In this document: positions 38,283 through 64,000 of the stretch, piece by piece
Layout: the number at the start of each line of letters is the position of its first letter
How positions within the stretch are numbered: position 1 is the first letter of the stretch
DNA from: an uncultured Gammaproteobacteria bacterium
GTDB taxonomy: Bacteria; Patescibacteriota; Microgenomatia; UBA10105; UBA927
Direction of reading: 5' to 3'
NCBI GenBank assembly: GCA_964621305.1
Contig: CAZUOM010000001.1
Span: 229,448 to 293,447, forward strand
Length of the DNA: 64,000 bases
The notes under the pieces: generated by a model
What the model was told of the DNA's origin: nothing
The model's input: only the letters and a program-made list of their open reading frames with translations
Database searches by the model: none
Translations under genes and position numbers: made by a program

Positions 38283-38312
38283 GGAGCACGAAGAGAAACA
38301 CCTGACACGGTC

Positions 38313-39133: not shown

Positions 39134-39173
39134 GCTAACTTTATGTATCAAGATATTATTTGTATGACCCTGG

Positions 39174-46744: not shown

Positions 46745-46772
46745 CTTCGCAAGGAGAGTCCTTGCGAAGCTA
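46742..46772. repeat. REP type 2 palindrome (copy c) overlapping the RAYT-2 stop codon
   Basis: tagcttcgcaaggagagtccttgcgaagcta, a perfect 31-bp palindrome apart from its centre. Confidence 0.8.
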
Positions 46773-47168: not shown

Positions 47169-47274
47169 ATACTTCAAATATAAAATAGAAAAAGAAACGT
47201 GTCTACTACCAACCTGAACTTTCCTTCTTGACAATTTCAAAGTGTACATATAATTATTTCTGTTCGCAGAATGC

Positions 47275-47559
47275 ATGAAAAGGAGGTGGCAAAGTATGAA
47301 AAAATTAAAAAAAATACCGCATTTTAAAACCGAAGAGGAGGAGAATCGTTTTTGGCAGCGAGTGGATTCGACTCAATATGTAGATTGGGACAAGGCTGAG
47401 CATTGGGTTTTTCCTAATTTGAAATTAACATCTAGACCAATAACCTTGCACCTTCCGTGTGGCTTAATCAATGATTACAAACTCAAGGCCCACAAAATGG
47501 GACTACCATACCAGGGACTCATGAAACAAGTGCTGTATAAGGGACTCGCGACGATCTAA
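47275..47559 (+). CDS. BrnA-like antitoxin (orphan)
   Basis: 'KIPHFKTEEEENRFWQRVDSTQYVDWDKAEHWVFPNLKLTSRPITLHLPCGLINDYKLKAHKMGLPYQGLMKQVL' matches the BrnA/CopG-like antitoxin pattern. No BrnT upstream. Confidence 0.45.
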   Translation: MKRRWQSMKKLKKIPHFKTEEEENRFWQRVDSTQYVDWDKAEHWVFPNLKLTSRPITLHLPCGLINDYKLKAHKMGLPYQGLMKQVLYKGLATI

Positions 47560-48365
47560 CGAAACCGCTGCCCAAAATTATCGATTGCTTTGGCCTTATC
47601 CCAAACAAACTCAAAAAGCTGGCGCAGCATAGATGCGTATTCGCTGTTTGTCACCTGAATGGCCACCTCGTCTCCTATTTTGACGCCCCAAAAGACGATG
47701 GAGTCGTCAGTAATGAAAATGTCTTGCTTGATATCCAGAACTTTTTTGGGGATCAACCTGTGGCGGTAGAACTTCGTAGTATATTTTTTGTTGGTCGTCC
47801 AGGTCGTCGTACCGTCGGGAGCTATGGGGTCTTCTGAATTGGATATTGACCGGATGCGCACATTTTTTTCGACATTGATCTGCCTGAGCTCTTCCGTAAA
47901 AGCTGACCCCAGTTTATCGTTCCACTGGAGAGAGTCAAATACCAGGACCTCGGTATCTGGTTTTCTGCCACGGATAATCCACTCCATTTGTTTGAGGCCC
48001 CGCACGCCTTTGTAATACAAAACGGATGTTTGGCCAGGGTTACCGGCCACAATTTGTTCGCTAAACTGCCTGATTTTTTCAACTGATGCTTTCATCTCTC
48101 TGGTTTTGGCCTCGGATTCGAGGATTATGGTTTTGAAGCTGTCAGCACTGGAAACGTTGTAAAAGCTGGTTTTCTCCCCTAGCTGGGTAACCACGAGGCC
48201 TTTTTCAATCAGAGACTCAAGGACTCTGTAGATAGTTGACCGCTTTATTGGACAATTTTTGGATAACTGCACCACCGTACTCCAGCCTTTTTTTACAAGG
48301 AGCAGATAAACCTTCTGTTCATCATCAGTAAGTCCAAAAACGCTGAGATCTTCCGTAATGGTCAT
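47556..48365 (-). CDS. TrmB-family transcriptional regulator
   Basis: N-terminal 'FGLTDDEQKVYLLLVKKGWSTVVQLSKNCPIKRSTIYRVLESLIEKGLV' TrmB wHTH. C-terminal sugar-binding-like domain. Confidence 0.6.
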   Translation of the reverse strand: MTITEDLSVFGLTDDEQKVYLLLVKKGWSTVVQLSKNCPIKRSTIYRVLESLIEKGLVVTQLGEKTSFYNVSSADSFKTIILESEAKTREMKASVEKIRQFSEQIVAGNPGQTSVLYYKGVRGLKQMEWIIRGRKPDTEVLVFDSLQWNDKLGSAFTEELRQINVEKNVRIRSISNSEDPIAPDGTTTWTTNKKYTTKFYRHRLIPKKVLDIKQDIFITDDSIVFWGVKIGDEVAIQVTNSEYASMLRQLFEFVWDKAKAIDNFGQRFR

Positions 48366-48452
48366 ACCTGTCCACCATTATGGACAACAGTTGGACAAAA
48401 ATCAAGACCGCTTCTATACTATGGGACTGTTCTTTGAGGGAGGTGAAATTTT

Positions 48453-48746
48453 ATGTCAGAACACATTAGGCCATCTTCTCAAGAAGAGGTAATCATTAGA
48501 AATGCGTTTCGTCGGGAAAAGACGAGAGGAAGGTGGCCAACAAAACAAGCAAAAGACCGAGAACTGGTCGGAACCGCTTTACATGTACTGAAAGATCATC
48601 CAGAAGATGATTTTAGCGAACAAATGTATCGTCATATTGCTGCAACGTGCAGAGAGGAACTGCCTAGGGTGTCAGCTCCAGGTGATACCGTTGATGTGGA
48701 GACTTGGCATCGTTTGACCCTCTTTATTAAGGAAGCAATTGGGTGA
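48453..48746 (+). CDS. hypothetical protein
   Basis: 97-aa ORF. Confidence 0.3.
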   Translation: MSEHIRPSSQEEVIIRNAFRREKTRGRWPTKQAKDRELVGTALHVLKDHPEDDFSEQMYRHIAATCREELPRVSAPGDTVDVETWHRLTLFIKEAIG

Positions 48747-48888
48747 CAGGAGGAGAGGAATGTAAAGCTTAAGTATGGAGTAAAAAGGGAGTTTTTTCTT
48801 TTCTTCCAACATTTCGCCCTAAAATATCAGGAGCTTCAAATAAAACTCGCTCAATCGTGGTAATTTTCTTCAGATAGTTTCAGTATAG

Positions 48889-50175
48889 TTACAGCTTAAG
48901 CATGTATTCAAGTTTTTCATCTCTCGGTTTGTTCCACACCAGTGCCATATTGAGGGTTTTTGTGACCAGATACTTTCTTACTAGTCGGTTGATGTCCTCT
49001 TTTGTAACCTTTTCTATCTTTTTGAGATATTCATCCAGCGTCAAAATGGGCTGACCGAAGACTTCCTGCCGTCCGTAAAACTCGGTCATAAACTCCGGGT
49101 CCTCAGCTTTAAATGCCATCATGGTTTTGATCCGTTTTTTGGCAACAGCAACTTCTTTCTCCGTTACTCCTTTCTCTCCCGCTTTTGCCAACTCTGCCAG
49201 TATTGCTTGTGTTGCTTGTGTTACTTTCTCTGTAGCCACACCAGCATAGATACTCCAGTACCCCACGTCTGCCCAGTTATTGGAGTTTGACCGGATGTGG
49301 TAACACAGTCCCCGCTTTTCGCGGATTTCCTTAAATAGCCGGCTGGTAAACGAGACACCCATAAGGAGATTAAAGACATTCCATGCAAACCGATCCTCGC
49401 TCCCCCGGCAAAACGTACGAAAGCCTAAAACCAGATGCGCCTGACTCGCATCGGGCTTGGTGACGACCTCAAGCTTGGGCTTACTTTGATGATTAACGAT
49501 CCTCTCCGCCTCCTCGGCGGACCCGCCGGTGAGGCTGGCAAACCACTCTTCTGTTTTCTGTCTGACGGCTGATGACTGACGACTGATGGCTCCTGCCAAC
49601 ACCACCACCATCCTACCAGGCGTGTACCAACGATCGTAGTAGCTTCGCAAGGACTCTCCTTGCAAAGCTAAGAGGCTTTCTGGTTCGCCGATTGTTCGCA
49701 TGCCGAGGCTAGTCGCTGGGTACATCATCGTGTGAAACGTTTCTTCTACTTTTGCTTCCGGCTCATCCTCGTAACGCTTCATTTCTTCGAGAATCACGCT
49801 GCGCTCCCGGTCGATGTGCTTCTGTTCGATTAATGGCGCCAGAGCAAGCTCGCGATTTATCTCTAGCGCTAGCTCCCAATCAGTGCTTAATACCTTGTTG
49901 TGGTAGTTGGTGATATCTATATCTGTATAGGCGTTTTGCAGCCCACCGATCCGCTCAATGATGTTGACGTCGTCGGTGGTAGGGTACCTTTTGGTTCCTT
50001 TGAAGACCATATGCTCCAAGAAATGGGAAACTCCGTTAATATCTTTGGTTTCGTAGCGGCTGCCCACCGCCACCATGACAGCCGTTGCCACACTGTTGAC
50101 GCCCTGCATTGGGACGAGAATGAGCCGAACGCCGCTTGGGAGGGTGGTTTTGTCGTAAGGGTTCCCTGTCTGCAT
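48889..50175 (-). CDS. M16-family (pitrilysin/insulinase-like) zinc peptidase
   Basis: 'HFLEHMVFKGT' inverted zinc motif HxxEH. 428 aa. Carries an in-frame REP type 2 copy (49640..49669, encoding LALQGESLRS) and a CTGATG-rich repeat (49541..49580). Confidence 0.8.
   Translation of the reverse strand: MQTGNPYDKTTLPSGVRLILVPMQGVNSVATAVMVAVGSRYETKDINGVSHFLEHMVFKGTKRYPTTDDVNIIERIGGLQNAYTDIDITNYHNKVLSTDWELALEINRELALAPLIEQKHIDRERSVILEEMKRYEDEPEAKVEETFHTMMYPATSLGMRTIGEPESLLALQGESLRSYYDRWYTPGRMVVVLAGAISRQSSAVRQKTEEWFASLTGGSAEEAERIVNHQSKPKLEVVTKPDASQAHLVLGFRTFCRGSEDRFAWNVFNLLMGVSFTSRLFKEIREKRGLCYHIRSNSNNWADVGYWSIYAGVATEKVTQATQAILAELAKAGEKGVTEKEVAVAKKRIKTMMAFKAEDPEFMTEFYGRQEVFGQPILTLDEYLKKIEKVTKEDINRLVRKYLVTKTLNMALVWNKPRDEKLEYMLKL
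49640..49669. repeat. REP type 2 palindrome (copy d) inside the M16 peptidase CDS
   Basis: tagcttcgcaaggactctccttgcaaagcta. Confidence 0.8.
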
Positions 50176-50240
50176 AGATGTTCATCCTACCAAATTCCTA
50201 GCCTTGCGTAAAGGCTCATTCCGCGCTATAGTTTACACCT

Positions 50241-50750
50241 ATGAAAAAAGAACAAAAAATTACTGGCCTTGAGCTCTACCGGCATTTCCCCTGGTACCAA
50301 CGCGTGACGGATTCGATACAGGGCATTTTAACTCAAGACGCAATCGACGCTGTTAGCGAATACGGACTGGACATAGAAGACTACAAAAAGCTCCTGTTTT
50401 ACCAAACAGGTGCTCGCGAACTAATTGGAGAAACCAATGATCGAATGCAGAAGCTCACGCAACACGAGCTATGGGAAATTTACCAATACCAGAAAACTGA
50501 ACTTGCCAAATGGGAAAGGCAGGAAGCCAGCGATTGGGCGGCGCAGAATCTAAAAGAGTACAAAATTTCGCGACTGCGCCAAGCTCTTTCAGCCAAATGT
50601 TTCCAAGACTTCGATGCACAACTTGCGGCTATTAGCGAACTGGAGGCAACAGTCAACCTGTTTCGCTTTGAATCGGACCTTCTTTCCCCTAACATCCACT
50701 CCGACTGGCCTAATGAACTTTTAAGCAAGAAAAAAAGGAAAAAGAAGTAA
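50241..50750 (+). CDS. hypothetical protein
   Basis: 169-aa ORF, Lys-rich C-terminus. Confidence 0.35.
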   Translation: MKKEQKITGLELYRHFPWYQRVTDSIQGILTQDAIDAVSEYGLDIEDYKKLLFYQTGARELIGETNDRMQKLTQHELWEIYQYQKTELAKWERQEASDWAAQNLKEYKISRLRQALSAKCFQDFDAQLAAISELEATVNLFRFESDLLSPNIHSDWPNELLSKKKRKKK

Positions 50751-50835
50751 GTGTTTACCAGCGCCTTTTTTTCCGGGGAATTTTTGGTGGCGTATGCTAT
50801 ACTGAATATATGACACAGGAAGAAGCAATTGCCCG

Positions 50836-51000
50836 ATGGAGAAAAAGCGCCAACCCTTCAGGGAACTGGTCCGACTCAAACAGCTCACTGGCGACATCGA
50901 GTTGGTTATCGAGCCGGTCCCCTACCATCCGGATGACCTGACTGATAAGTACGACCCACTGGCAAAAGAAATCCGCACCCACGGCATCCGGATCGTGTAA
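50836..51000 (+). CDS. possible small protein (54 aa)
   Basis: ATG..TAA ORF 'MEKKRQPFRELVRLKQLTGDIELVIEPVPYHPDDLTDKYDPLAKEIRTHGIRIV', below the ORF-track cutoff. Coordinates are +/-1. No motif. Confidence 0.2.
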   Translation: MEKKRQPFRELVRLKQLTGDIELVIEPVPYHPDDLTDKYDPLAKEIRTHGIRIV

Positions 51001-51505
51001 ACAGTGCTCAATAGAAAATCCTATAGGGTCTTGATTTTTTGGGGAGTTTGTGGTATAAGAAGAACAATCAACAACGCCTTGTCCTTCGTCGAAGACTCCT
51101 CAGGACGAGTCCTAAGAAGGAAATTATAACCGGCCAGAGAGCCGGTTTAATTGTGGGGAAAAACCGGTAAAATTGATTTTCGAACCAAAATGAATATAAT
51201 ACGATATCTTGTAGTAAGTCTTGAGTAAACATAGCTCTTTGACCCCGCCACCAATCTTACCTCGCGCCGTCCGCCCCCAGCTACGCAGTTGCTGGCGGAG
51301 CGCTCGCGAGGAGCGATGGTGCAAGGGTCTGGATCACAACATGCGATGCAGTTGTTCTTTGACATATCAGGATGAAAAACCAGGAAGGATGCATTCTGGA
51401 AGCTATCAGTCTTCAGTCATCAGCCATCAGACTGAAAGCTGAGCGCTGACAGCTGGCAGCTTTTGGAAGGCATCCTTGCTGGGGAGGATGTAAAGGAGGA
51501 AGACG

Positions 51506-51694
51506 ATGTGGTTAATACCAATAATCATTATCGTGATTACCATCGCGCTCGCCATTTTGCTGATACTCACAGCGCCACTCTGGGCGAGAATGTTCAATGC
51601 GATCGCCAGCCTCGGAAAAAAACAGATCAAAGAGGCAGGCGAGACACTTGAGGCGGACGAAAAAAAGGAGGAAGGAAATGAGCCGCTATCGTGA
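51506..51694 (+). CDS. small membrane protein
   Basis: RBS aaggaggaagacgATG. 'LIPIIIIVITIALAILLILTAPLW' TM helix. Overlaps the SPFH gene start. Confidence 0.4.
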   Translation: MWLIPIIIIVITIALAILLILTAPLWARMFNAIASLGKKQIKEAGETLEADEKKEEGNEPLS

Positions 51695-52679
51695 TGATGA
51701 GTTAAGTAGAAGAACGTCTATCCCCGGCACATACATAGCCGCTGGTATCGTCGTGATTCTACTGGGGTGCAGCGTTCTGTTTGCATGCACGGCGGTTGAT
51801 CGGGTTGATCCCGGAAACGCGGGAGTGCTCGTAGACTTTGGGGCGGGTACTGTGGCTGGGGAACCGAAACTCAGCTCAATCCAAACGTCACAGTACTTTT
51901 TCAAAAACCCGATCTGGCAAGTCCTGGTTGAATATCCCATCACCCAACAAACTCTCACCATGAACAAAGCCGAGAAGGAGGGTGATGATTCCATCCGCTG
52001 TCAGGACATGAACGGGGTGCCCGTGAATATCGACACCTCTACGCTCTGGCGCGTGGATCCATTGAAGGTTGGGCAATTATACCTCAAGCGCCGCGACATG
52101 CCGCTCGTTGGCAAGGCCGGAGGCGACATTGAAAGTGTGATTGTCCGACGAGAAGTACGAAACGCTGTTACACTAACGTGCAGCAAATACCGATACGACG
52201 AGATGTACGGCACCAAGCGCGTGGAGTTCGGCGAGAAAGCAACTAACTTTCTCGGTCCTGAGTTGTTAGAAAATCACATTCTGCTGGACAAGTTCATTTT
52301 GGGCGAGATTCACCTTTTGCCAGAACAGCAGACGGCAATCAACCGCAAGGTGCTCGCCGAGCAGGCGGCGCTCGAAGCGGCGTTTCTGAAGCAGAAAGCC
52401 GAAAACGAAGCAGCGGGAAAGGTTGCCGACGCAGAAGGTCAGCGTAAGGTGCGTATTTTGCAAGCCCAGGCGGAAGCGGAGGCAATCCGCATCGTGAATG
52501 AACAACTTGGGCAGTCAAAGTTCTACATCGAGTACACCTACGCGATCAAGTGGAATGGAGCGTATCCATCGACGATCGTACTCGGTAGCGGGCAATCAAT
52601 CCCGGTCCTAGCGGGACTACAACTGCAACAACTGGCAACACCAACACCCGCGCCAACCGTACCAACGGGCACCAAATAA
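51678..52679 (+). CDS. SPFH/band-7 (stomatin/prohibitin-like) membrane protein
   Basis: RBS aaaaaggaggaaggaaATG. N-terminal TM, then beta/alpha SPFH-like region and the Ala/Glu-rich coiled coil 'AEQAALEAAFLKQKAENEAAGKVADAEGQRKVRILQAQAEAEAIRIV' typical of HflK/C and stomatins. Confidence 0.65.
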   Translation: MSRYRDDELSRRTSIPGTYIAAGIVVILLGCSVLFACTAVDRVDPGNAGVLVDFGAGTVAGEPKLSSIQTSQYFFKNPIWQVLVEYPITQQTLTMNKAEKEGDDSIRCQDMNGVPVNIDTSTLWRVDPLKVGQLYLKRRDMPLVGKAGGDIESVIVRREVRNAVTLTCSKYRYDEMYGTKRVEFGEKATNFLGPELLENHILLDKFILGEIHLLPEQQTAINRKVLAEQAALEAAFLKQKAENEAAGKVADAEGQRKVRILQAQAEAEAIRIVNEQLGQSKFYIEYTYAIKWNGAYPSTIVLGSGQSIPVLAGLQLQQLATPTPAPTVPTGTK

Positions 52680-52884
52680 CATCATCCTCACCCCCTGGGT
52701 AGTCCCCAGAGTACCCAGGTCATCCTGATACCAAGGTGCAAAACCTCGGTCGGGCTTGGAGAAAAAGCACTATGCATCTGCATACTGCCTATACCCTCTC
52801 TAGCCCGACCGATTTTTTTTAGGAAAAGGCAATTCTATTGTAGCACCAGATCCGTTTGAGCAGCTATGGTATACTACCATCAGC

Positions 52885-53172
52885 GTGGATATTCAAACGG
52901 TCAAGCATAAATCAGCCCCAATATTGCAACAATATCATGTACGAAAAGCCGCGGTTTTTGGATCTTTTGCCCGCGGAGAAGATCACGAAAAAAGCGATAT
53001 TGATATTCTCGTCGACCTACCCGATGCGCTCAGTTTATTTGATTTCGTCGCCCTCTCAAGCGATTTGGAATCTATTCTCCACACTGCGGTAGATCTGGTT
53101 GAGTATGATGCAATAAAACCGGCACTCCGAAAATATATTCTTGGCACAGAAATCCCCATTTATCCCATATGA
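52885..53172 (+). CDS. MNT-type nucleotidyltransferase (MntA-like antitoxin)
   Basis: 'VFGSFARGEDHEKSDIDILV' = GSxxRGx...SDxD minimal NTase motif. Confidence 0.7.
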   Translation: MDIQTVKHKSAPILQQYHVRKAAVFGSFARGEDHEKSDIDILVDLPDALSLFDFVALSSDLESILHTAVDLVEYDAIKPALRKYILGTEIPIYPI

Positions 53173-53501
53173 CTCGAGATATCAACGTCTATCTTGACGA
53201 TATATTAGAAGCTATTGCAAAAATACGTGAGTATACCAACTGATTGGATGAAGTCCGGTTTTCTGAGGATACCCCAATCCAGGACGCGGTCATCCGGCGG
53301 CTGACCATCATCGGCGAAGCAGCCGGGAATATTCCCAAAGAGATCCGGCTGCAATTCCCCGACGTAAAGTGGAAGTCTATTGTGGGACTTCGAAATGTCG
53401 TCATACACGAATATGCCAAAGTGAAGCGCTCCCCCGACCTTACGGTCGGGGCATCGGCTGGTTCATTCGGAGCGCGAAACCCCGCACCGAATGCCTTTTG
53501 A
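53170..53501 (+). pseudogene. HEPN/DUF86 (HepT-like) toxin gene, frameshifted
   Basis: 'MTRDINVYLDDILEAIAKIREYTN*' (frame 1) then 'LDEVRFSEDTPIQDAVIRRLTIIGEAAGNIPKEI...VGLRNVVIHEYAKV' (frame 0) with the Rx4HxY HEPN motif. The C-terminus also diverges. Confidence 0.5.
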
Positions 53502-53690
53502 AACCATTCATCCCTCGAGCTTACGCTCGGGGCATTCTGGTGCTGGGGTAAAAATGGGACGGGTGTGGGAAGTGGTTCACTCAGAGTTATCGAGCCTTGA
53601 ATCGTCTATCCAATCGATGAAAGAATCGTGTGTGAAACAACAACGACACTGAAAAACCCTCTCTAGCCCGACCGAACCTTTTTTCCCAAC

Positions 53691-54929
53691 TCAAAAGAGG
53701 CACGCCGGAGCCTGGCCGGTCAATGATACAAGCTGAAAGGTATACCCAGGTAGAGACACGGTAGGCTTCCATCGGTCATCGGCGTCAGACCGGAACTTGA
53801 CTTCATAGGCTTGTCTTTTCTTTGGCACGAGAAAGTCTATTTCCTTATCGCGCTTGCGCAGAAACGTCACTTCTTCCCCCTTTTCCAACAACCGCTCCAA
53901 AACGTAGGACTCAACGGCAAAGCCCATACCCGTGGCAAAATCGTGTTTGGACTCAAAAAGCGAAAACATGGAACTCACGTATATCTTTTTGGCGCTGTTT
54001 TCTCTCGTGAGAGGCTTAGTGCTGTTGTACACGATATACACCAACCCCATCAGCTCCAGAACAGAAAGATATTTTTCCAATGTGACGGCTGTCGTGTTGG
54101 CAACGCGCGCTAGGTTGATGGTCGATACGACGCTACCGCTATTGGTTCGAAGGTAGGTAAACAGGGCATTTATAATCTGCGGTTTTTCTATTGCAAAATA
54201 GTTAAACGCATCCTGCGTGAGGCTCTGGCCGAGGACAGAAAGAATATATGCTTTCTGCTGGTCCGGCGTAAGCCGTACCATTTCCGGCAGTCTCCCCCAC
54301 GCAAGAAACTCGCGGAACCGGCTATTGAGCTCGGAAAGCATGTGTCCCCGCACGAACCGATCTTTTTCGTGTTGGACCGATGATGCGACGGAAACAAGCG
54401 AAGAACCGGTCAACCCCAGGTATTCACTAAATCCCAACGGAAAAAGGCGGTAGTGGAAAAATCTCCCCCCCAGGCTCTCTTCCATTCTCTGTTTGTAGGA
54501 GAGGCTCAGCGACCCGGTCAATACAAATTTTGTCTTCGGCCCTGTGTCGTAAAACTCCTTCACCACCCGTTCAAATCCATGGACAAATTGTATTTCGTCG
54601 AAAAAACAATAAACCGGGAGCCCCGGCGCGGCGATTTCTTTCAGAAAAAGATCATAGACCGACCAGATATCCTCACGGGTATCTCCCGGACCAAACTCAA
54701 AAAAAAGGATCTGGGTCGGCGGCACAGCCTTCTGACGGATGAGATCATCAACAACCTGTCGAAGAAGCACAGACTTGCCGGTCCGCCTGGGCCCGGTCAA
54801 AAAAATCATGGGGCGCGATCTCATATCTTTCCAAATGTTGCCAAATAGAGCTCTCCGGAACACAAAAGTCTCAAGCTGCCTTCCGGACCAATGGCGATTT
54901 TGAAAAATGACACGATCGCGTATGATCAT
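53691..54929 (-). CDS. AAA+ ATPase (AAA_14/DUF4143 family)
   Basis: Walker A 'LTGPRRTGKS', Walker B 'YCFFDEIQ'. C-terminal DUF4143-like region. Confidence 0.65.
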   Translation of the reverse strand: MIIRDRVIFQNRHWSGRQLETFVFRRALFGNIWKDMRSRPMIFLTGPRRTGKSVLLRQVVDDLIRQKAVPPTQILFFEFGPGDTREDIWSVYDLFLKEIAAPGLPVYCFFDEIQFVHGFERVVKEFYDTGPKTKFVLTGSLSLSYKQRMEESLGGRFFHYRLFPLGFSEYLGLTGSSLVSVASSVQHEKDRFVRGHMLSELNSRFREFLAWGRLPEMVRLTPDQQKAYILSVLGQSLTQDAFNYFAIEKPQIINALFTYLRTNSGSVVSTINLARVANTTAVTLEKYLSVLELMGLVYIVYNSTKPLTRENSAKKIYVSSMFSLFESKHDFATGMGFAVESYVLERLLEKGEEVTFLRKRDKEIDFLVPKKRQAYEVKFRSDADDRWKPTVSLPGYTFQLVSLTGQAPACLF

Positions 54930-55096
54930 ATACTAAACTCTATACGATCTATATAATTTTGTCAACAAAGCAATAAAGAGCCTATCGGAATATGGTTGCA
55001 GCTAAACACGGCCAAACGACACTAAAAAACACCCAAGCAGAACGCGATAGTCATCTTCATGAAGAAGACAATATCGATCCGCCTGGGTGTTTGTGT

Positions 55097-55615
55097 TTAT
55101 CTAAACGACCGTCCGTATAAGTACCAAACGGCCTCATATCCATCAATCTGAAGAGTACCAAATAAAACATCCACCACGCTCCCCTCTTTCCACTGGCTCT
55201 TCAAGGAATACGTGTACTGGGTTGTTAGATCTCCAGCAATAATGTCTTTATTGGGAACTCTCCGATAATTCACGTACAACAACTCCGGCACGATGCAGGA
55301 GGCCGGCGGCAGTGTTGGATTCTGGCAACGAGGCACATCAAGAACGACTGTGTCCCCATTTTTAACTTCCACCGCGATCGCATCTTCGTCTGGAACGTAT
55401 CCAAACCAGGTTACTTTCGGGGGATTATCCCAGACCGGCGGTGTTATCTCGAAGATATGTTTGATATCATCAATCGAGAAGATTCGCTTGGATTCGTCAG
55501 TCGTGAGAGGAACTGATGTTTCCAACACGAATGATATTCTTTCTCCAGCCGGCGCGGCCTGACAGGCGCTGGCAGCTAGGAGAACTAGCGCCAAAACACC
55601 AAGAAACTTTCTCAT
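55097..55615 (-). CDS. secreted hypothetical protein
   Basis: RBS ggaggaATGgcATG. Signal peptide 'MRKFLGVLALVLLAASACQAAPAG'. Confidence 0.45.
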   Translation of the reverse strand: MRKFLGVLALVLLAASACQAAPAGERISFVLETSVPLTTDESKRIFSIDDIKHIFEITPPVWDNPPKVTWFGYVPDEDAIAVEVKNGDTVVLDVPRCQNPTLPPASCIVPELLYVNYRRVPNKDIIAGDLTTQYTYSLKSQWKEGSVVDVLFGTLQIDGYEAVWYLYGRSFR

Positions 55616-55749
55616 GCCATTCCTCCAAAATTGGATTCGCACTATAATGTTCAACTACAATGGAAATGTGCGTATCTATTATTTTATCATATCCTATAAC
55701 AATAGTAAACTACGCCCTAGTTATTTCGTCGTGACTTCTATATGATTAT

Positions 55750-56127
55750 TTGATGACCGCTGATGATCTACGTCAGGATTTGGAACTGAAAATCGTTGAG
55801 CTTCTAAAAGCTAAAGTTGAGGATGGGTCGATGACCGAAGAGCGGAGCCAGCAAATAGCCAAGATCGTCCTGGAGCTCCTGCGGCCCGGCATGAGCTGGG
55901 AGGAGCTGTTCAAAGCCATTCCCAGACTGGACGATAGCGCATCGGAGCTTTGTATTGTCATCCTCCCCTATTTACGAAAATACGAGGAAATGGTAAGCAA
56001 CAAAGCTACACACCAGGTAGCAGAATTCATTCGCACCGGTCAATACGATGCAGCCGTACAACTGTCTAGGAAAGTAATCGCCCAAGAGGGCGTCACGCTG
56101 ACGGGATCAGGAAGCGCTACCAGCTAG
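55750..56127 (+). CDS. hypothetical protein
   Basis: 125-aa helical ORF. Confidence 0.35.
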   Translation: MMTADDLRQDLELKIVELLKAKVEDGSMTEERSQQIAKIVLELLRPGMSWEELFKAIPRLDDSASELCIVILPYLRKYEEMVSNKATHQVAEFIRTGQYDAAVQLSRKVIAQEGVTLTGSGSATS

Positions 56128-56129
56128 GC

Positions 56130-58103
56130 CTAATCTCTATCAAGGCGGGGAAATCGGGCATCCGCTTGCCCCTTTAATGCCGCAAGCATGGGTCTAGTGA
56201 TATCATCAACTGCACTTTTTGCATTTGGATCTGGCTGGCCGGGTGATGCGGAAGAAAATGCATCATTTATTTTAAGTTGCGGGGCAAAATCATCCGTGTC
56301 GCAATATTCTGCGTATGCCGCAAAACAATCGGCGACGTAGGCTGTTAATGCAGTTAATTGCTCTTTCGTAATGCCAACGTTGTGCGCGCTTTCAAAAAAC
56401 TCCGTGGCTTTTTCACGATAAGTATCCTGCCCGTATATGGATATGTTTTGTTTACAGAGCAATTTCATATACTGTACTATAAATTCACTCTGGTGAAAAA
56501 TGTCACTCGTTTTTTTGTGCGGTGGTCGATAATTAAGTGGTGATTCAGATAATATATCTATATCAGAAAATCCAGTAAACATTTTTCTTAAATCCGTTTG
56601 CAATTGGGCGAGTGATTTTTTCGTATTCAACTGTCCTTCTATAACATAACTGACTCCAATAGAATACAACGTTTTTAGCATCATATATTTCACCTGATCG
56701 GTAAATTGATCTCTGGTCTGGCTATGTTTGAGTGCCATGAGTGTGTTTTCAGCGCCAAATTCACGAATTTGCGCGACATATATTCTCTTGCGCAGGTGTT
56801 GTTTTGTATGCTCTACCAATAAGCGCGCTGATAGCTCTATCAGCTTTTTTCTATACTTCTGTGTATCCTCTCCTTCAAATGCACTACTATACAAGTCTTT
56901 TTCGTGTTTGCGAAGATAGTCCCGGTGCCGGATGACAATTAGCTTTTTTACCGCTTCGGCACGCGGATCTCCTCTTTCGTAAAACAGGCGGTAGGCCGTG
57001 ATGGCTCCCACGGCAAGGCTCTGGGCATATTGAGGTATCTGACTGGCACAAACGATATATTCTGCAATATTTTGATTACTTACGATAATTTTTAATGCTC
57101 TTCCTAAAGCATAGGATGCATCATCTCGATAGCCGGTGTTGAGTGAAGATGTGAGTAGCAACTCCAAATCCTCTGTATCGCTATCTTCAAATCCTTCAAA
57201 TATTTTTGAGGTGAACGTGGTATGGGCATGGTCAATCTCGGAAAGCCGCCTGGGAGCAAATTGATCCATGGCTTCCAATGCGCGTATAAAAACAGATGTA
57301 TTGATGAATTGTTCGTCCCGGCTATAAGTCTTCGTCGCCCGTATCTCTTTTGCTGATCCGGCGAACTTTGGGCCTATGTACCGGCCGACGATGACGCTTT
57401 TTCCCTGAAAAAATCGAATGATTTGCGCTAATGAAAAAGCGGTCTGAAGCCTGCGATATCTATATTTGTCCTCCGGTGTTGGGTCATCATAAAAATCAAA
57501 TTGGAATTTTTCCTTCACATGGTAGGCGCCATAGACCGTATCGATCCCAAGGCGCTTGGCGACCTGGGCAACCGCCGTTTCCCACTGATATTCCCACGCT
57601 CTGCTCCGGTCCCATGCCTGGCCTTTGATCAAGTTTTGGGTAAAGGCGTCTTTTGCAAAATCAAAGACCCCCTCGCGCACGACTGAATCCTCCATCGAGC
57701 CCAATGGACTATTCAAATATCTATGAACTATACTTTCAAGCTCTGTGAGCAGTCTGTTGTCTGCAAGTGATTCTGGGTCTTTTCGTGCGTCGTCGATAAG
57801 ATGCTGCCACAATTCTGTTTGTGCAAGAATTTTAGCAAATGCATTAAGTTCTACTGAGGCTGCCTGGTCTATGAGGCGGAGCACTTGTTGATGCTTTTCT
57901 TGTTCTATTGCCAATCTATCGGGGTTTGTTTGTTTTAATATTTCAATATCCGATTCGTCAGGATACAGTGCATCTTTCAGTGGCTTTATTATCCGTTCAC
58001 TAAAGATATACCGCTTTGCTCGGATATCTCCGGATACCTGTGTGGCAAAGTGATACCAAATATCCCCGCCCGCCGGCAACGGTAAAACTTTTTGTTCACT
58101 CAT
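56130..58103 (-). CDS. large hypothetical protein (657 aa), operon member
   Basis: No motif recognised. Start ATGA-overlaps the stop of the upstream 73-aa ORF. Confidence 0.5.
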   Translation of the reverse strand: MSEQKVLPLPAGGDIWYHFATQVSGDIRAKRYIFSERIIKPLKDALYPDESDIEILKQTNPDRLAIEQEKHQQVLRLIDQAASVELNAFAKILAQTELWQHLIDDARKDPESLADNRLLTELESIVHRYLNSPLGSMEDSVVREGVFDFAKDAFTQNLIKGQAWDRSRAWEYQWETAVAQVAKRLGIDTVYGAYHVKEKFQFDFYDDPTPEDKYRYRRLQTAFSLAQIIRFFQGKSVIVGRYIGPKFAGSAKEIRATKTYSRDEQFINTSVFIRALEAMDQFAPRRLSEIDHAHTTFTSKIFEGFEDSDTEDLELLLTSSLNTGYRDDASYALGRALKIIVSNQNIAEYIVCASQIPQYAQSLAVGAITAYRLFYERGDPRAEAVKKLIVIRHRDYLRKHEKDLYSSAFEGEDTQKYRKKLIELSARLLVEHTKQHLRKRIYVAQIREFGAENTLMALKHSQTRDQFTDQVKYMMLKTLYSIGVSYVIEGQLNTKKSLAQLQTDLRKMFTGFSDIDILSESPLNYRPPHKKTSDIFHQSEFIVQYMKLLCKQNISIYGQDTYREKATEFFESAHNVGITKEQLTALTAYVADCFAAYAEYCDTDDFAPQLKINDAFSSASPGQPDPNAKSAVDDITRPMLAALKGQADARFPRLDRD

Positions 58104-58321
58104 AATGATGTTTGTAAGACACGGAAAAATTGCGTGCAGGTCTTTTTGAGTTCAATGATCGCCTGAGCACCTGAAATAATATTATCGCTGTATTGATTTC
58201 GAATTGTTTGAAGATTTTTTTGAAAGGCAATATGCGCGGAAAGGTCATGCGGAGAAACAATAATCCCGTGGTTTATTGCCGTACCGGTCATTCCATCGGA
58301 CATATACGGCAAGTATAGCAC
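58100..58321 (-). CDS. small hypothetical protein (73 aa), operon member
   Basis: Translationally coupled between the 560-aa and 657-aa genes. Confidence 0.35.
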   Translation of the reverse strand: MLYLPYMSDGMTGTAINHGIIVSPHDLSAHIAFQKNLQTIRNQYSDNIISGAQAIIELKKTCTQFFRVLQTSL

Positions 58322-58335
58322 AAAAAAATCGCCTA

Positions 58336-60018
58336 CTACGATTTTTTCTGTGTTTGAATGAAAAAACCATCATCTCGTATCTCAAAGCCGGTAACAGAAA
58401 CATTCTGAAGATTCGTATTGAGATACCACATGGCCGCCGGAAGCAACCAACTTGAGGCAATACCTGCAAGTGAAAAAATATCTTCATCCGTTGCACCCTT
58501 CAGTTCATCAGGAAACGCTTCGCGCATTTGATCGGAAACTATTTCTAAACTATCCACGCGTATGCCAAGTTTATCATGATCGTCATTTACTAAAACAATG
58601 CGTCCAAAAAAACGTTCAACGTCAATCTCAATAGTTGCTCTTTTTTCTGATTTACGTTCATCGAAAATAATATTCATTTTCTTTTTATCATCATCTTTTA
58701 ATGCTTCATCAATTATGTCGCGACTGATGAAATACCCATCAGATTCGGGAGATGCATCGATGGCGGCTACTATATCCGGCTGTTTTTCCGGCACGTCCAT
58801 GTTACCGAGTACCGTAAAACCATCTTTGGTAACTTGAAAACGGGTAAATTCAATCTGCTGTCCCTCCGATTGCCTGACAAACAGCTCAGGCAAACGGGTA
58901 AACAGAAGGTGGATGCCCTCCGTCGTTTCCGGTATGTCAGAAAATTCATCTTTTTCTCCTTCTGCCATTCGTGCCAGCGGCCGTTCCATGCGTTTACCAA
59001 TGCGTATGGCCAAATCCAATATCTTTTTCACTATCGGATTGAGGACTAATTCTGTCTCGATTCCAACTTTTGAAGCATTCGAGTTGCGCACCACTACTTC
59101 TACGGAGAGGTTATTGACAAACCTCTGAAGCCTGGATAACGGCGTACCGGAAAGATTGAGCCCAAAATCCGCGTGTGCGGTGATTTCTGACGGGTTCTTC
59201 TGCGTAAGCGTGAGATGAAACTTCTTCAGATGGTTGCCCAGTATGGCTTCTTCTACTATCTCAGATACTGATTTTCCTGCGTTATCAACTTGCAATAATC
59301 GAATGCCAATGGCGGCAGCGGTATTGACGCTGTATTCTGTAAGCCCGAGCGGAATGGTGAACTCGTAGGGCAACCGTATGGTAGGCTCTTTTTCTTCTTT
59401 CTTCATTCGTTTGGGCATTTCGGGATCATCTCGGACCATCAAATCAAATACTTTGCTGTCGCCAATGTCCGGAGGCACAAAATCTTTCCCAACGCCTAAT
59501 TTTAGACGAATGGGTAGTTCTGTTGATGATATTTGCTGTATGATTTTTTCTCCTGCTTCATCTGAGAGACGATCAAAACATGGAATGACAATTTCTATCC
59601 CTTCCAAGTTAGCTGCATGAAGAAGTCGGCCCAGTTCTCCCATGGGATCAACACTAAACTCATTGGTCCACTCTTCACGCTGTATGCGATCTGTCTCTGA
59701 TACATCAATCCGATGATTTTTTTGTATGACATCTCTATCATCTGTGAAAGACCAGAAGATATGGTGTGTGAAGGGGTTAAAAAATTTACTATACGATATA
59801 TCATCCTGCGGAGAAAGAATAACCGGAATCGCTAAAATTCCATCTGGGTGTACAGATTTCAGGCCGATGGTCGCGTCGCGAGCTTCGAGTAATTTGCTCA
59901 TTGATCGTTCTCTCTGCCGAAGGCTGCCGCGAAGAAAGGAAATGGGGGCGGCAGAGCCTATCCACTCAGACCCGGCAGGATCTTCTGTGGGGATTTCAGG
60001 CACTAGAGAAGAAGGCAT
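58336..60018 (-). CDS. large hypothetical protein (560 aa), operon member
   Basis: No motif recognised. Its first about 17 codons are duplicated at 60813..60860. Confidence 0.5.
   Translation of the reverse strand: MPSSLVPEIPTEDPAGSEWIGSAAPISFLRGSLRQRERSMSKLLEARDATIGLKSVHPDGILAIPVILSPQDDISYSKFFNPFTHHIFWSFTDDRDVIQKNHRIDVSETDRIQREEWTNEFSVDPMGELGRLLHAANLEGIEIVIPCFDRLSDEAGEKIIQQISSTELPIRLKLGVGKDFVPPDIGDSKVFDLMVRDDPEMPKRMKKEEKEPTIRLPYEFTIPLGLTEYSVNTAAAIGIRLLQVDNAGKSVSEIVEEAILGNHLKKFHLTLTQKNPSEITAHADFGLNLSGTPLSRLQRFVNNLSVEVVVRNSNASKVGIETELVLNPIVKKILDLAIRIGKRMERPLARMAEGEKDEFSDIPETTEGIHLLFTRLPELFVRQSEGQQIEFTRFQVTKDGFTVLGNMDVPEKQPDIVAAIDASPESDGYFISRDIIDEALKDDDKKKMNIIFDERKSEKRATIEIDVERFFGRIVLVNDDHDKLGIRVDSLEIVSDQMREAFPDELKGATDEDIFSLAGIASSWLLPAAMWYLNTNLQNVSVTGFEIRDDGFFIQTQKKS
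59971..60018. repeat. direct repeat copy 1 (about 48 bp) flanking the VapBC cassette
   Basis: cccggcaggatcttctgtggggatttcaggcactagagaagaaggcat versus 60813..60860 with 4 mismatches. Confidence 0.85.
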
Positions 60019-60132
60019 AAAGTAATTGTAGCATATTGCCGCTAGCGCGGCTCTTCCTCATATTAGAATCTGTATTCTAATATGTATATTCTCCTTGACA
60101 ATGCATAGACTGTCTGGTATCGTTGCTCTACC

Positions 60133-60387
60133 ATGAACACCAAAATCATCCCTATCACAGAATTCATCCGCAGGTTCGGAGTCTATAGCCAGCTTCTTCC
60201 TACGCTTTCCGGCCTTATTTTAACCCGTGAGGGCCGCCCGTTTGCGACACTCAGGGCTACGCCGGAGGAAAAAAACCGGCAACTTCTCTCTTTTTTCGGT
60301 CTCTGGAAAGGAACGGACTTGGATAGCGATCTCCTCTGGAAAACCGTTCGCAAACGCCGCAACCGCAAGGCCCTTATCTCTCTCTAA
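60133..60387 (+). CDS. Phd/YefM-family antitoxin
   Basis: 'KIIPITEFIRRFGVYSQLL...LILTREGRPFATL' Phd/YefM-like N-terminus. 4-nt gap to vapC. Confidence 0.5.
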   Translation: MNTKIIPITEFIRRFGVYSQLLPTLSGLILTREGRPFATLRATPEEKNRQLLSFFGLWKGTDLDSDLLWKTVRKRRNRKALISL

Positions 60388-60390
60388 GCT

Positions 60391-60822
60391 ATGACGTATC
60401 TTTTAGATACTTCGGTCATTGTGGGATTATTACGAAGAAACCAGGCAGTGCGTGATTTCCTTGCAGCCCATCAAGACGACACGTTCACCGCCAGTACACT
60501 TTGCGTTTTTGAAATTACCAGCGGTATCTATCGTGCACCGATCAAGGATCAAGCCAGGTATCAAAGCCAGGCAAAGGCAGTATTCGGAACTCTTACGGAA
60601 CTATTGCCATTTACCACAGAGTACGCGGATATTGCCGGCGCAATCCAGGCAGAGCTTGCCAAAAAGGGTAACCTCATTGATGATATCGATATCCTTATTG
60701 CCGCAACCGCACTGGCCAATCACGCCACGCTCGTAACGCTCAATATGCGACATTTCCAGCGTATCAAGGGACTTGCCATTGTCTCCCCCACTGAGAAACG
60801 CCACCACTCGGGCCCGGCATGA
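60391..60822 (+). CDS. vapC: PIN-domain VapC toxin
   Basis: 'YLLDTSVIVGLL' (Asp-5), '...FEI...', 'DILIAATALANHATLVTLNMRHF' PIN acidic residues. Confidence 0.7.
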   Translation: MTYLLDTSVIVGLLRRNQAVRDFLAAHQDDTFTASTLCVFEITSGIYRAPIKDQARYQSQAKAVFGTLTELLPFTTEYADIAGAIQAELAKKGNLIDDIDILIAATALANHATLVTLNMRHFQRIKGLAIVSPTEKRHHSGPA

Positions 60823-60860
60823 TCTTCTGTTGGGATTTCTGGCACAAGAGAAGAAGGCAT
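60813..60860. repeat. direct repeat copy 2 flanking the VapBC cassette (overlaps the vapC stop)
   Basis: See copy 1. Creates a decoy ATG plus 17 codons of the 560-aa gene N-terminus. Confidence 0.85.
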
Positions 60861-60866
60861 CAGCAC

Positions 60867-61682
60867 TTATTTTGAAGTATTTTCCAAAAATTTCTCGAAT
60901 ACATCCTTTTGTGTAGCTTCCGGAGCTGCAAAAAATTCTTCTGCGTTCTGAAGATTAAACGCCTTCACCAGGGCTTTCTGCATCATGTCCAATCTTTCTG
61001 CAGTGGTTCCCGGACGAAAATTTTCTGCTAGTCCCGGTGCCCAATTTCTCAATAGATCGTACACTGTCCGATGTCCTACGTGTCTATCATAGTTATCAAG
61101 CATTTTTACAGAAAGCGCCGCAAGATCTCCTATTGCCTGCCGACGGTCCTCGCTTAAGTTTGCTCCAGTCTGATCAACTGACTCACCCTGACATCGAACG
61201 TTGAGTATGTTGATAAACAATTGACGCTCCTGCTGTGACATGCCAACCACCTTTCCCGGTTCGGTTCCAGCCTTTTTGAAAGCAATATCTGCTTGTTTAT
61301 AAAATCTCTCAATCAGTTGTTTTCGAGCTCTTTCATTTGCGGCTTCTTCTGCTTTAGATTCTCTCTCCGTTTTCCATCTCGCGCCCAACAATTTTTCTGC
61401 TTGTAATTTTTCTACCCTCGTTGCGTTTCTAAGAAACGCTTCTGAAGTAACCCGAAGATATTTATCTATTGTACGTGCTTCACCTAAGAAAGGCGCCTTA
61501 TATCCTTCCGCACGCTCTTCTTTTTTAGGAGCTAATCTAGCGACCCTCTCTGGATCCAAAGTTTTCCTCGGGTCTGTTAACGCCGCATCTGCAACAAACG
61601 CTGGCGCCTCTGGCTTCAGGGGTCCAGGACCTTTATCATGGGTTAAAGCTCTCAATGCTCCTTCTGTATCTATTGATGCCAT
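60867..61682 (-). CDS. hypothetical protein (271 aa), operon member
   Basis: No motif. Charged/helical. Confidence 0.45.
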   Translation of the reverse strand: MASIDTEGALRALTHDKGPGPLKPEAPAFVADAALTDPRKTLDPERVARLAPKKEERAEGYKAPFLGEARTIDKYLRVTSEAFLRNATRVEKLQAEKLLGARWKTERESKAEEAANERARKQLIERFYKQADIAFKKAGTEPGKVVGMSQQERQLFINILNVRCQGESVDQTGANLSEDRRQAIGDLAALSVKMLDNYDRHVGHRTVYDLLRNWAPGLAENFRPGTTAERLDMMQKALVKAFNLQNAEEFFAAPEATQKDVFEKFLENTSK

Positions 61683-61743
61683 ATTTTTGCCTTATCTATT
61701 CTGAATTTTAGTATCAAAAATAATCCCTTGTCAATGCCCAATT

Positions 61744-62181
61744 TCACGCGGTTGTGGCGGAGGCAACCGTTGCCCAGTCGTCCTGGTCGATAGCCGTCAA
61801 GACTGACTGCACGCGTGCTTTCTCTGCCTCGTCAGGGGCAGTATTGAGTATATCCAGCCGCTCTTGGAAATTGGCTTTCACGAGGTCTTTTTTCATCGCC
61901 AGCAGCTTGGCCCTTACGTAATCGTCAAAGTCCGGAAACTTTTGCTTCAGAAACTCCATGGCCTGGGGTTTGGTTGCAGGATCTGCCGAAAGCTTATTAA
62001 ACTCGTCAATATCCTCCTCGGTCATATAAAGCGGTAGGTCTTCTGCTGCCATGGCACTAAAGGCACCCTCTAACAGCTCGTTGGTGTAGCCTTCCCGTTC
62101 TTCGGGCGTCAAGTGGGACAGGCCCAACAGCTTAAACAAATCAAGTTCTTCCAGTGTTACTTTTTTGGGTTGATCATCCAT
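61744..62181 (-). CDS. acidic hypothetical protein (145 aa), operon member
   Basis: No motif. pI clearly acidic (many D/E). Confidence 0.4.
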   Translation of the reverse strand: MDDQPKKVTLEELDLFKLLGLSHLTPEEREGYTNELLEGAFSAMAAEDLPLYMTEEDIDEFNKLSADPATKPQAMEFLKQKFPDFDDYVRAKLLAMKKDLVKANFQERLDILNTAPDEAEKARVQSVLTAIDQDDWATVASATTA

Positions 62182-62221
62182 ATGTATCTATTAAAAAGCC
62201 AAAAGCCGCTGTTGTCAAGGA

Positions 62222-63997
62222 TTACTTTCTGATGAGGCTAAGCGGTATCTTAAGTTTGGCTTCCTTACCTACATAGTGCCAGAGCTCCTTTAGTTTTCTC
62301 ACTGCATCGGCTTTTGAAGTAGCATCGCCTGTTTGAGCAGATGCAACGAGGCTAGCGATTTTATCCTGATCCAATCCCGCGGGAGTAATAAGTCCCTCTA
62401 GTGTCGCAATAACATTCGTATTCTTTACCGCTTTTGCCATAGCAAGGGAACGATTCCAGTACTCAACATTGTCACTATTGGCCTTGGCCATCTCTCCTAA
62501 TATGGTATTGGTGTCTTTCCAAAGATGCGGATCGCTGACTCCTTTCTCCCTCATGTAGGCAAAAACCGTATCGCCGACGGTTTTATTGACCGTCACGGTG
62601 TCAAAGGTCGGAGCGATCGGAGCGGTCGGAGGCGCCGGGGGAACCTCAACTCTCTCCTGGAGCTTCTGATACACGTCTTTTTGCTTCATTTTCTCCAACT
62701 CCTCAGGCGTAAACGTTCTGTCTTCTGGCACAGGCGGAGCCGCTGGTGCTTCTTGGGCAGGTACTTCTCCTAGTCGAATCGCCCAGTCAAAAACAGAAAA
62801 TACATTAATGGCCTTTGCTGCGGCCGTCAAGCTCCTGCCTGTGACATAGGCAGCTTCCAGCCCAAACCTATTGATGTCACCTCTCCTAGACTCGGAGAGG
62901 ATCTGCGTAAGCTCATTGGCAAGTTCTTTATCTTCCGCTGCCGGGCTATCTTTAAGTTGCGCAATAGCACTTAGACTCATGTCTCGAAAATCCCTATACA
63001 ATTTATTGAGCCTATCTATCCTACTATTGGGACTTTGCAGGGTTTCTGGATTTTCTATGGATTTGAGATAATCAGTTTCACGGAAGTACCCCACCTCCCT
63101 ATCCCGACCTAATTGTCTGGTCATTTTAACAAGATTTAATCGAAAGAGTCGTGCGTCATGAGATGTTGAATCCAAGCCTTCTCTCACCGCAGCCTTAATG
63201 TCCTCAATATTAAAGTCAGAATTGAGTACTTCGTTGATCATTCCCCTCACTCTTTGGTTTTCCGCTCCGCGTTCAATGGAAAAGGCTCGGACGGCTAGCT
63301 GACCCGCGCGGACCTCCGTGCCCCGGCCAAGGGCGCCAAAAAACCTGCCCACCGTCTCCAATCGCCCCCGCCACCCCTTGTTTTCACTCTTTTTAAACGA
63401 CACATCCTCGGCCATCATACTCGCGAGCCCCCGTCCCCTCCACATTTCTGAAGCGCCACGCGCTCCCGAAAGAGCCGCTCCTGCCCCTGCGGCAACGAGG
63501 AGGCCTGCGCCACCGGTTAAAATCATGGCGTAATCTTTTGCCAGTGCGGTACCCACGCCAACTGCCGTGGCACCGACGAGGTCTTTGCGGCTAGCCCACA
63601 TTCCGGCAACGAAATTCTTGGTGAATTCGTAAATCTTCTTCTGACGAGGAGAAGGTGTTTCCGGAGCCACTGTTGCTCCGCCCAGTTCCGGTTTGACAAA
63701 GCGCTTATCCCACTCAGCCCGCCACCGGGTCGCTATCTCCCGCAACCATTGGCCCTTCTGAATTTGCCCTTTGCGTTCTGCAACAGGCAGATCTCTCGTC
63801 CTCCTCCTATCATCTTCCAAAGATCCCTGAAAAGCTTTACCTAGTGGTATTAATAAGGTGAGTCTGTCCTTTGCCCGCTCTATTATGCCTTTACGGGCCG
63901 CTACGGCACGAGATGTCAACTGGGCAACACTATCTTCAGACGGTTTGGTTGCCACAGGCTTCTTTTCGCCACGAGTCTTCTTCTCAGATACCGGCAC
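62222..63997 (-). CDS. large membrane-associated hypothetical protein with glycine-zipper hydrophobic segment (partial, continues beyond the window)
   Basis: 'LVGATAVGVGTALAKDYAMILTGGAGLLVAAGAGAALSGARGA' GxxxG-rich TM segment. Pro/Ala-rich linker 'PAQEAPAAPPVPE...VPPAPPTAPIAPT'. The ORF reaches the window edge. Confidence 0.45.
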   Translation of the reverse strand: MPVSEKKTRGEKKPVATKPSEDSVAQLTSRAVAARKGIIERAKDRLTLLIPLGKAFQGSLEDDRRRTRDLPVAERKGQIQKGQWLREIATRWRAEWDKRFVKPELGGATVAPETPSPRQKKIYEFTKNFVAGMWASRKDLVGATAVGVGTALAKDYAMILTGGAGLLVAAGAGAALSGARGASEMWRGRGLASMMAEDVSFKKSENKGWRGRLETVGRFFGALGRGTEVRAGQLAVRAFSIERGAENQRVRGMINEVLNSDFNIEDIKAAVREGLDSTSHDARLFRLNLVKMTRQLGRDREVGYFRETDYLKSIENPETLQSPNSRIDRLNKLYRDFRDMSLSAIAQLKDSPAAEDKELANELTQILSESRRGDINRFGLEAAYVTGRSLTAAAKAINVFSVFDWAIRLGEVPAQEAPAAPPVPEDRTFTPEELEKMKQKDVYQKLQERVEVPPAPPTAPIAPTFDTVTVNKTVGDTVFAYMREKGVSDPHLWKDTNTILGEMAKANSDNVEYWNRSLAMAKAVKNTNVIATLEGLITPAGLDQDKIASLVASAQTGDATSKADAVRKLKELWHYVGKEAKLKIPLSLIRK

Positions 63998-64000
63998 CTC

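Follow-up and report, generated by a model that had tools for sequence, protein, structure and literature searches.

A PP2C-like membrane protein with a small conserved partner, and a neighbouring block of four genes without detectable relatives, in a minus-strand gene cluster of an uncultured bacterium

The closest described counterparts of the system analysed here are membrane-anchored PP2C phosphatases of bacteria (Stp1/PstP type), such as PstP of Mycobacterium tuberculosis and Stp1 of Streptococcus agalactiae and Staphylococcus aureus, together with the PP2C-fold pseudophosphatases TAB1 and PHLPP2 (PMC12002173), both eukaryotic and soluble. We analysed six adjacent minus-strand genes, A to F, at positions 56130-64000 of a 64,000-nucleotide stretch of DNA from an uncultured bacterium (contig CAZUOM010000001.1, positions 229,448 to 293,447; hereafter the window). 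An earlier note, made from the letters of the window, had proposed that the six genes form a conserved operon of domain-less proteins and thus a candidate for a single lineage-specific machine. Following the cluster beyond the window edge and comparing its neighbourhood with other loci led us to lean towards a different reading, in which two units lie side by side: a module of A and B, possibly joined by a membrane protein, M, encoded beyond the edge, and a cassette formed by C to F.

The pair formed by A and B is the part of the cluster that recurs. The two genes are adjacent in all four loci in which they occur, here and in the metagenome contigs L002, L004 and L008. In L002 (8 kb) a B homologue (155 amino acids, 58% identical), a 217-amino-acid homologue of M and a 177-amino-acid membrane protein (X177) come after the A homologue in this order, the genes overlapping or leaving only small gaps, which gives an overlapping A-B-M-X operon. 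L004 (7 kb) and L008 (3.8 kb, from a scan of Joint Genome Institute metagenomes) each carry an A homologue lacking the PP2C domain and a B homologue (46% and 54% identical, respectively), followed in L004 by a convergent gene for a solute-binding protein and in L008 by an unrelated gene of 241 codons. The B-family genes lie at 61744-62181 in the window, at 5249-5716 in L002 and at 5123-5590 in L004. No counterpart of C, D, E or F was found in any of these three other loci. Of the proposed conserved operon, only A-B therefore recurs in this gene-neighbourhood comparison, and the idea of one six-gene machine is not supported, the cluster not being conserved as a unit. The family is itself very rare, since a search of 185,579 species-representative genomes (GTDB) with a B-family profile came back empty; in total we count 4-5 loci among about 15 billion proteins. 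Separately, B-family proteins gave recurrent sub-threshold matches to the C2 region of Pasteurella multocida toxin (Pfam PF20899, E about 0.1; PDB 2ec5, E about 1), those to PF20899 in two of the three B-family proteins; they recur in two libraries and are probably noise.

The boundary between B and C is also marked in composition. GC content at third codon positions (GC3) breaks from 0.59 in B to 0.34 in C; it is 0.34-0.41 across C-F, 0.46 in A, 0.50-0.60 in a VapBC toxin-antitoxin cassette inserted in D and 0.45-0.62 in most window genes. Just upstream of C, in the B-C gap, there is a minus-strand sigma-70-like match (TTGACA-18-TAAAAT, 11/12, 61705..61734), the best in the 9-kb region and on the correct strand, where shuffled sequences lead us to expect 0.11 per 9 kb. 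Together, the absence of C-F from the other loci, their lower GC3 and the promoter-like site in the B-C gap suggest that C-F are a unit separate from A-B, and we infer that the block may be transcribed independently and have been acquired independently. No terminator-like site was found between B and C or anywhere inside the cluster; a weak terminator-like hairpin (56079..56092, minus strand) lies 38 nt past the stop codon of F, inside a convergent gene of 125 codons.

The gene structure itself is clear. Gene A (62222..63997+), whose open reading frame (ORF) runs off the window edge, is represented in the window by the C-terminal 591 of its 886 residues. It is followed on the minus strand by B (61744..62181), encoding the conserved partner of A, an acidic protein of 145 amino acids with an isoelectric point of 4.3; by C (60867..61682; 271 amino acids, GC3 0.34), which is without detectable relatives; by D (58336..60018; 560 amino acids, acidic, GC3 0.41); by E (58100..58321; 73 amino acids, called as 67 in another assembly); and by F (56130..58103; 657 amino acids, GC3 0.41), no relatives having been found for D or F. 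The gaps measure 40 nt between A and B, 61 nt between B and C and 14 nt between D and E, with 6 nt originally separating C from D, and the intergenic gaps of the operon total only 229 nt. The tight, co-directional packing described in the earlier note agrees with the ORF listing, and the coupling of the 73- and 657-codon genes is visible as a 4-nt overlap of the E stop and the F start (ATGA, 58100..58103); the D-E gap had been put at 15 nt, one too many. That the first protein is cut by the edge was borne out by NCBI record SBBN01000039.1 (assembly GCA_005239695.1, 20,405 bp), which is 100% identical to window positions 46751..64000 and extends 3,155 bp beyond, so that gene A could be followed as far as 64882 (extended coordinates). 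Window positions 58162..63282, VapBC included, recur without a difference in a Logan contig from run SRR6943130, which thus comes from the same strain.

Twelve window genes with Pfam support served to train a frame-specific codon model, which gave A-F in-frame log-likelihoods of about -4.0 per codon, against -4.3 to -4.4 off-frame. These in-frame scores equal those of the window reference genes (-4.02), and A-F are thus real coding sequences, E having the weakest coding signal among the six. Searching the window with all cluster proteins (tblastn) returned no paralogues and revealed a 57-nt repeat, which is described below with the VapBC insertion.

The N-terminal 300 or so residues of A, encoded outside the window, have an Stp1-like PP2C fold, with a central beta-sandwich flanked by helices. 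When 1.84 billion representatives were searched exhaustively with A (HMMER), six relatives emerged, with identities of about 30%. One of them, P0004, matches over residues 34-315 (E 3.6e-20), P0005 (921 amino acids) matches over residues 345-883 with the same overall architecture (E 6.9e-19), and P0009 (404 amino acids) matches the middle region only. The other three, P0006-P0008, are PP2C proteins that align with residues 93-207 approximately (phmmer E 7.6e-6, 1.4e-5 and 2.4e-4) and hit Pfam PP2C with E-values of 1e-10 to 6e-17; the PP2C domains of the relatives match both Pfam PP2C and NCBIfam Stp1 (E 4.4e-51). In a direct Pfam scan of full-length A the PP2C models stayed below significance, and phmmer and profile searches of PDB sequences gave nothing useful for A, the A family or the B family. 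A word-index homologue search with A returned the query only, a false negative given the relatives found by HMMER. The description of the six proteins as domain-less thus applies to the in-window sequences, for which Pfam, PHROGs, NCBIfam and PADLOC, run on their neighbours too, yielded nothing significant; it does not extend to the N-terminus of A beyond the edge. Apart from this PP2C-like domain the genes are indeed lineage-restricted and unassignable, as had been supposed.

Much of the canonical PP2C signature is gone from A. In the alignment, ADGxGG is replaced by AEPT with two residues deleted, GDSR by GAAG and CSDG by GGES. In all, three of the five canonical metal-binding positions differ, and only the Asp of motif 1 and the 'DN' Asp are kept. 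The same motifs are degenerate also in P0004 and intact in P0005-P0008. With three metal-binding positions altered and a shorter DGxGG loop, the PP2C domain of A is, judging from its sequence, probably a pseudophosphatase, binding rather than dephosphorylating.

After the PP2C domain, A continues with a charged linker, a glycine-zipper stretch, a basic helical domain, a Pro-rich linker and a C-terminal domain; the glycine-zipper membrane segment and the Pro/Ala linkers pointed out in the earlier note are both present. The hydrophobic segment (residues 438-475 or so, 63458..63571, minus strand; Kyte-Doolittle 1.78 for MILTGGAGLLVAAGAGAAL) is K/R-rich on both flanks, and its conservation extends to P0005 and P0009. 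It forms either a hairpin in the membrane or an anchor that crosses once; under the positive-inside rule, the K/R-rich flanks on both sides suggest a hairpin anchor, which would leave the whole protein cytoplasmic. The basic helical middle domain carries the conserved motif ESRRG/S...N...Y..R...K. The C-terminal alpha/beta domain of about 130 amino acids (residues 755-886 approximately, 62225..62620, minus strand), which follows the Pro-rich linker, is modelled with a predicted local distance difference test score (pLDDT) of about 80-85 and is conserved in P0005 and L008, as is its terminal motif, K(I/L)KIP. A LysM-like reading of this domain was considered (14-residue Pfam match in P0004, E 0.044; beta-helices-beta layout) and set aside, and an EspA-like TPR_23 match on A (E 0.012) was discarded as noise, as it is not found in the relatives of A.

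Beyond the window edge, head-to-head with A and 38 nt away from it, lies the gene for M, a 228-amino-acid multi-pass membrane protein with an HExxH motif (64921-65607 in extended coordinates; L001 1549-2235), and beyond it a 347-amino-acid unknown protein is encoded on the same strand as A. M has 6-7 hydrophobic segments, with HELSH at residues 54-58 inside one of them, and its homologue in L002 is 40% identical (E 4.6e-31), HELSH being invariant. Linkage of M to A-B in two of the four loci, in two different arrangements, suggests a functional tie between them. A profile built from the two M sequences had a single PDB match, the site-2 protease of M. jannaschii (3B4R, E 0.098), in which the HExxH of M aligns to the zinc ligands H54/H58 and is followed by the same Leu-Leu-Pro turn; the third zinc ligand of the protease is D148. 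Against Pfam Peptidase_M50, M scores E 1.6 (8.4 bits, for a cut-off of 27.2). Both M sequences share SN[ST]MFSSxED[ML]K, in which D156 lies about 98 residues downstream of HExxH and the N and D are spaced similarly to those of NxxPxxxLDG, the Pro, Leu and Gly of that motif being missing. We regard the link to site-2 proteases as a lead weakly suggested by these similarities and not as an assignment.

The block of C to F was later interrupted. The VapC toxin, a PIN-domain protein of 143 amino acids (60391..60822, plus strand; PF01850, E 1.9e-13), is preceded on the same strand by an ORF of 84 codons (60133..60387) that ends 3 nt before vapC and, by position only, is a candidate VapB-like antitoxin, having no family match. 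The insert measures 842 bp (60019-60860), contains no integrase or transposase and is bracketed by the 57-nt imperfect direct repeat (51/57 identical, 89%), both copies of which encode codons 1-19 of D on the minus strand. The new copy forms the first 57 nt of D (59962-60018); the displaced old copy (60804..60860) begins 6 nt after the stop codon of C and has the vapC stop inside it. Its ATG, at 60860, thus stands 6 nt past the TAA of C, so that C and D were once contiguous and translationally close, in line with the proposal of the earlier note that the C stop would abut the D start once VapBC is removed. Three of the six mismatches between the copies are synonymous, and one of the others gives vapC, read from the opposite strand, its TGA stop (60820-60822) within the old copy. 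The insertion regenerated the start of D, which offers weak evidence that D is maintained by selection, and it could supply a new promoter for D-E-F: upstream of the present D start, at the border of the insert, lies a minus-strand promoter-like site (TTGTCA-16-TAGAAT, 60074..60101), back-to-back with a plus-strand one (60095..60123) that could serve vapB. With a replacement 5' end and a promoter-like site in place, D-E-F could stay expressed.

For C-F, about 1,560 amino acids of coding sequence, we detected no ancestry. All four are singleton clusters at 90% identity among the 15 billion proteins, save for an alternative start of E; plasmid searches gave no match for the block, and PDB sequences (phmmer and profile) none for C, D or F. 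Scans of C, D and F revealed no nuclease, ATPase, nucleotidyltransferase, protease or common catalytic motif and no internal repeats, and neither a signal peptide nor a membrane segment was found in C-F. A word-index search with D and F returned only themselves; the same type of search had missed the relatives of A at about 30% identity. We therefore use 'orphan' for C-F in the sense of having no relative closer than roughly 30-35% identity.

Taken together, A, B and M might constitute a membrane-anchored scaffold of a Ser/Thr-phosphosignalling type, in which B, as a small acidic cytoplasmic protein, probably binds the basic middle domain of A, and in which M may act on A, processing it in the Gly-rich membrane segment. 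C-D-E-F would form a second unit, coupled in translation, that encodes four soluble proteins and has a promoter-like site of its own. We read it as an accessory cassette confined to the strain or lineage, either acquired or evolving fast, and lying in a variable region together with VapBC, an MNT/HepT pair and an AAA_14 ATPase. VapBC later integrated in codons 1-19 of D, giving it the replacement 5' end and the accompanying promoter-like site.

Several points weigh against this composite reading. The comparison contigs are short (3.8-8 kb) and distant (their A homologues are 25-33% identical), and a closer relative could carry C-F next to A-B. Low GC3 occurs in other patches of the window too and may reflect expression level or amino-acid bias instead of a foreign origin, the promoter call is a consensus match in a host whose promoters may differ from the sigma-70 consensus, and with no terminator between B and C, read-through from A-B into C-F is possible. 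The lack of relatives of D and F comes from a word-index search, which did not cover C and E, nor were these two searched for in the large databases. As to function, two of the three altered metal-binding positions in A are Asp-to-Glu changes, so that residual catalysis is possible, and the link of M to site-2 proteases falls below every significance threshold.

The same limited sensitivity of the D and F searches would fit a reading in which all six genes and M form one lineage-specific apparatus, acting for example at the envelope or in host interaction, with C-F as fast-evolving subunits whose relatives are too diverged to be found. Co-directional genes spaced 40, 61, originally 6, and 14 nt apart, with one 4-nt overlap and no internal terminator-like site, would agree with it. 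We nevertheless consider it unlikely, because A-B is followed by unrelated genes in all three other contigs (M and X177, the solute-binding protein gene and the 241-codon gene), because the GC3 break (0.59 to 0.34) and a strong promoter-like site fall together in the B-C gap, and because C-F lack signal peptides and membrane segments. Nor does it seem probable that C-D-E-F are a novel anti-phage or other conflict cassette. Their surroundings resemble a defence island, with VapBC inside the cluster and an MNT/HepT pair, an AAA_14/DUF4143 ATPase and an IS200-like transposase nearby, and the four genes are singletons of atypical GC3; yet PADLOC-DB 2.0 had nothing for A, C, D, E or F and only an unconvincing DrmC match on B (E 0.0069, 14 bits), C, D and F are without nuclease, ATPase, nucleotidyltransferase or protease motifs, and C-F offer no relatives whose co-occurrence with defence genes elsewhere could be drawn on. 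Of the suggestion in the earlier note that the cluster is a defence system, membership of a known family thus falls away, and what is left is a novel conflict cassette, with no positive support. Orphan genes of little or no function, either recent de novo genes or decaying ones with long ORFs kept, would also appear as singleton clusters at 90% identity among 15 billion proteins, with no domain and no motif, and E is indeed short and has the weakest coding signal of the six. This is less probable still: chance cannot keep ORFs as long as 271, 560 and 657 codons open at 44% GC, the frame-specific codon statistics equal those of known genes, translational coupling is preserved, and the VapBC insertion left D with a regenerated 5' end, three of the six repeat differences being synonymous.

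The remaining alternative would make the cluster what is left of a prophage tail, an option raised in the earlier note, and A its tape-measure-like protein. A has long predicted helices and hydrophobic segments rich in Gly, both frequent in tape-measure proteins, and Foldseek did list tape-measure and internal virion proteins, all with a probability below 0.25. Other results speak against it. PHROGs had no significant match for any of the six proteins, tblastn against 50,697 phage genomes none for A, B, C, D or F, and IMG/VR no relative of D or F; the significant matches among viral structures (BFVD) are to PP2C only. Capsid, terminase, portal and integrase genes are absent from the annotated 20-kb record as well as from the surveyed window genes, and the relatives of A sit in cellular contexts, with DprA, tRNAs and transporters nearby. 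This reading is already effectively refuted, and we give it almost no weight against that of an A-B(-M) module beside a separate C-F cassette.

Other features of the window complete the picture of the surroundings. An MNT-like nucleotidyltransferase and a HepT-like protein form a toxin-antitoxin pair at 52885..53501, just downstream of the cluster, where the AAA_14/DUF4143 ATPase is also encoded (53691..54929); an IS200-like Y1 transposase lies at 46049..46744. A second PP2C-led cluster on the minus strand (215-4098) consists of a PP2C_2 protein (3184..4098, E 1.7e-14) followed by proteins of 641 and 339 amino acids without a Pfam match; a BLASTP comparison of the N-terminus of A with this PP2C_2 protein found no similarity, and the two clusters are unrelated in sequence. 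A patch of low GC3 (0.32-0.39) at 35726-39890, which holds GT4 glycosyltransferases, has the appearance of a variable island for surface polysaccharides, and its composition resembles that of C-F. The window genes further include ribosomal protein L1, MreB, a full-length serpin (5593-6717, Pfam E 1e-91) and a fusion of a cytidylyltransferase-like domain with DUF359 (25025-25981), the latter being the archaeal-type dephospho-CoA kinase family. The flanking Band_7 protein has its closest species-representative relatives in Anaerolineae/Chloroflexi metagenome-assembled genomes (46-49% identity), in loci (L005-L007) of 56-58% GC, against 47% here, that share no neighbourhood with the cluster.

Orphan genes such as C-F are common in uncultured small-genome bacteria and would not be surprising alone. 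If our reading is correct, A would stand out as an unusual variant among the membrane PP2C phosphatases of bacteria, one with much of the metal site gone and always paired with a small acidic protein. It would then be a candidate for a scaffold built on a PP2C pseudophosphatase, of a kind rare in bacteria and possibly controlled by intramembrane proteolysis. Stronger claims seem to us improbable: that C-D-E-F are a self-contained new system, for example a conflict or host-interaction module, acquired beside A-B-M and kept under selection, as the regenerated start of D would suggest, or that A-B-M are a new membrane signalling device in which a site-2-protease-like enzyme processes a PP2C pseudophosphatase scaffold. 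The placement of VapBC within the first 19 codons of a gene, with a diverged replacement supplied, is a neat small case of a gene-preserving insertion. Like type II VapBC cassettes in general, it has a PIN toxin preceded by a small same-strand ORF; unlike the usual ones, its antitoxin has no family match and it is bracketed by a 57-nt repeat of the 5' end of its target gene.

M shares with the site-2 proteases of the M50 family (3B4R) its multi-pass topology and an HExxH in a membrane helix, and has a conserved Asp at a spacing comparable to that of their third zinc ligand; it differs from them in its sub-threshold scores, in not preserving NxxPxxxLDG and in having neither a PDZ nor a CBS domain. 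Compared with TAB1 and PHLPP2, A is bacterial and membrane-anchored, and its predicted inactivity is read from its sequence only. The genes that accompany phosphatases at PstP-type loci, for a Ser/Thr kinase, FHA proteins and FtsW/PBP, are not present in the 20-kb record, and there are no Pkinase or FHA families among the window genes scanned. From the Stp1/PstP phosphatases themselves A differs in its changed metal-binding positions and shortened DGxGG loop, in middle and C-terminal domains without known relatives, and in a glycine zipper with K/R on both sides that may form a hairpin and not a single pass through the membrane.

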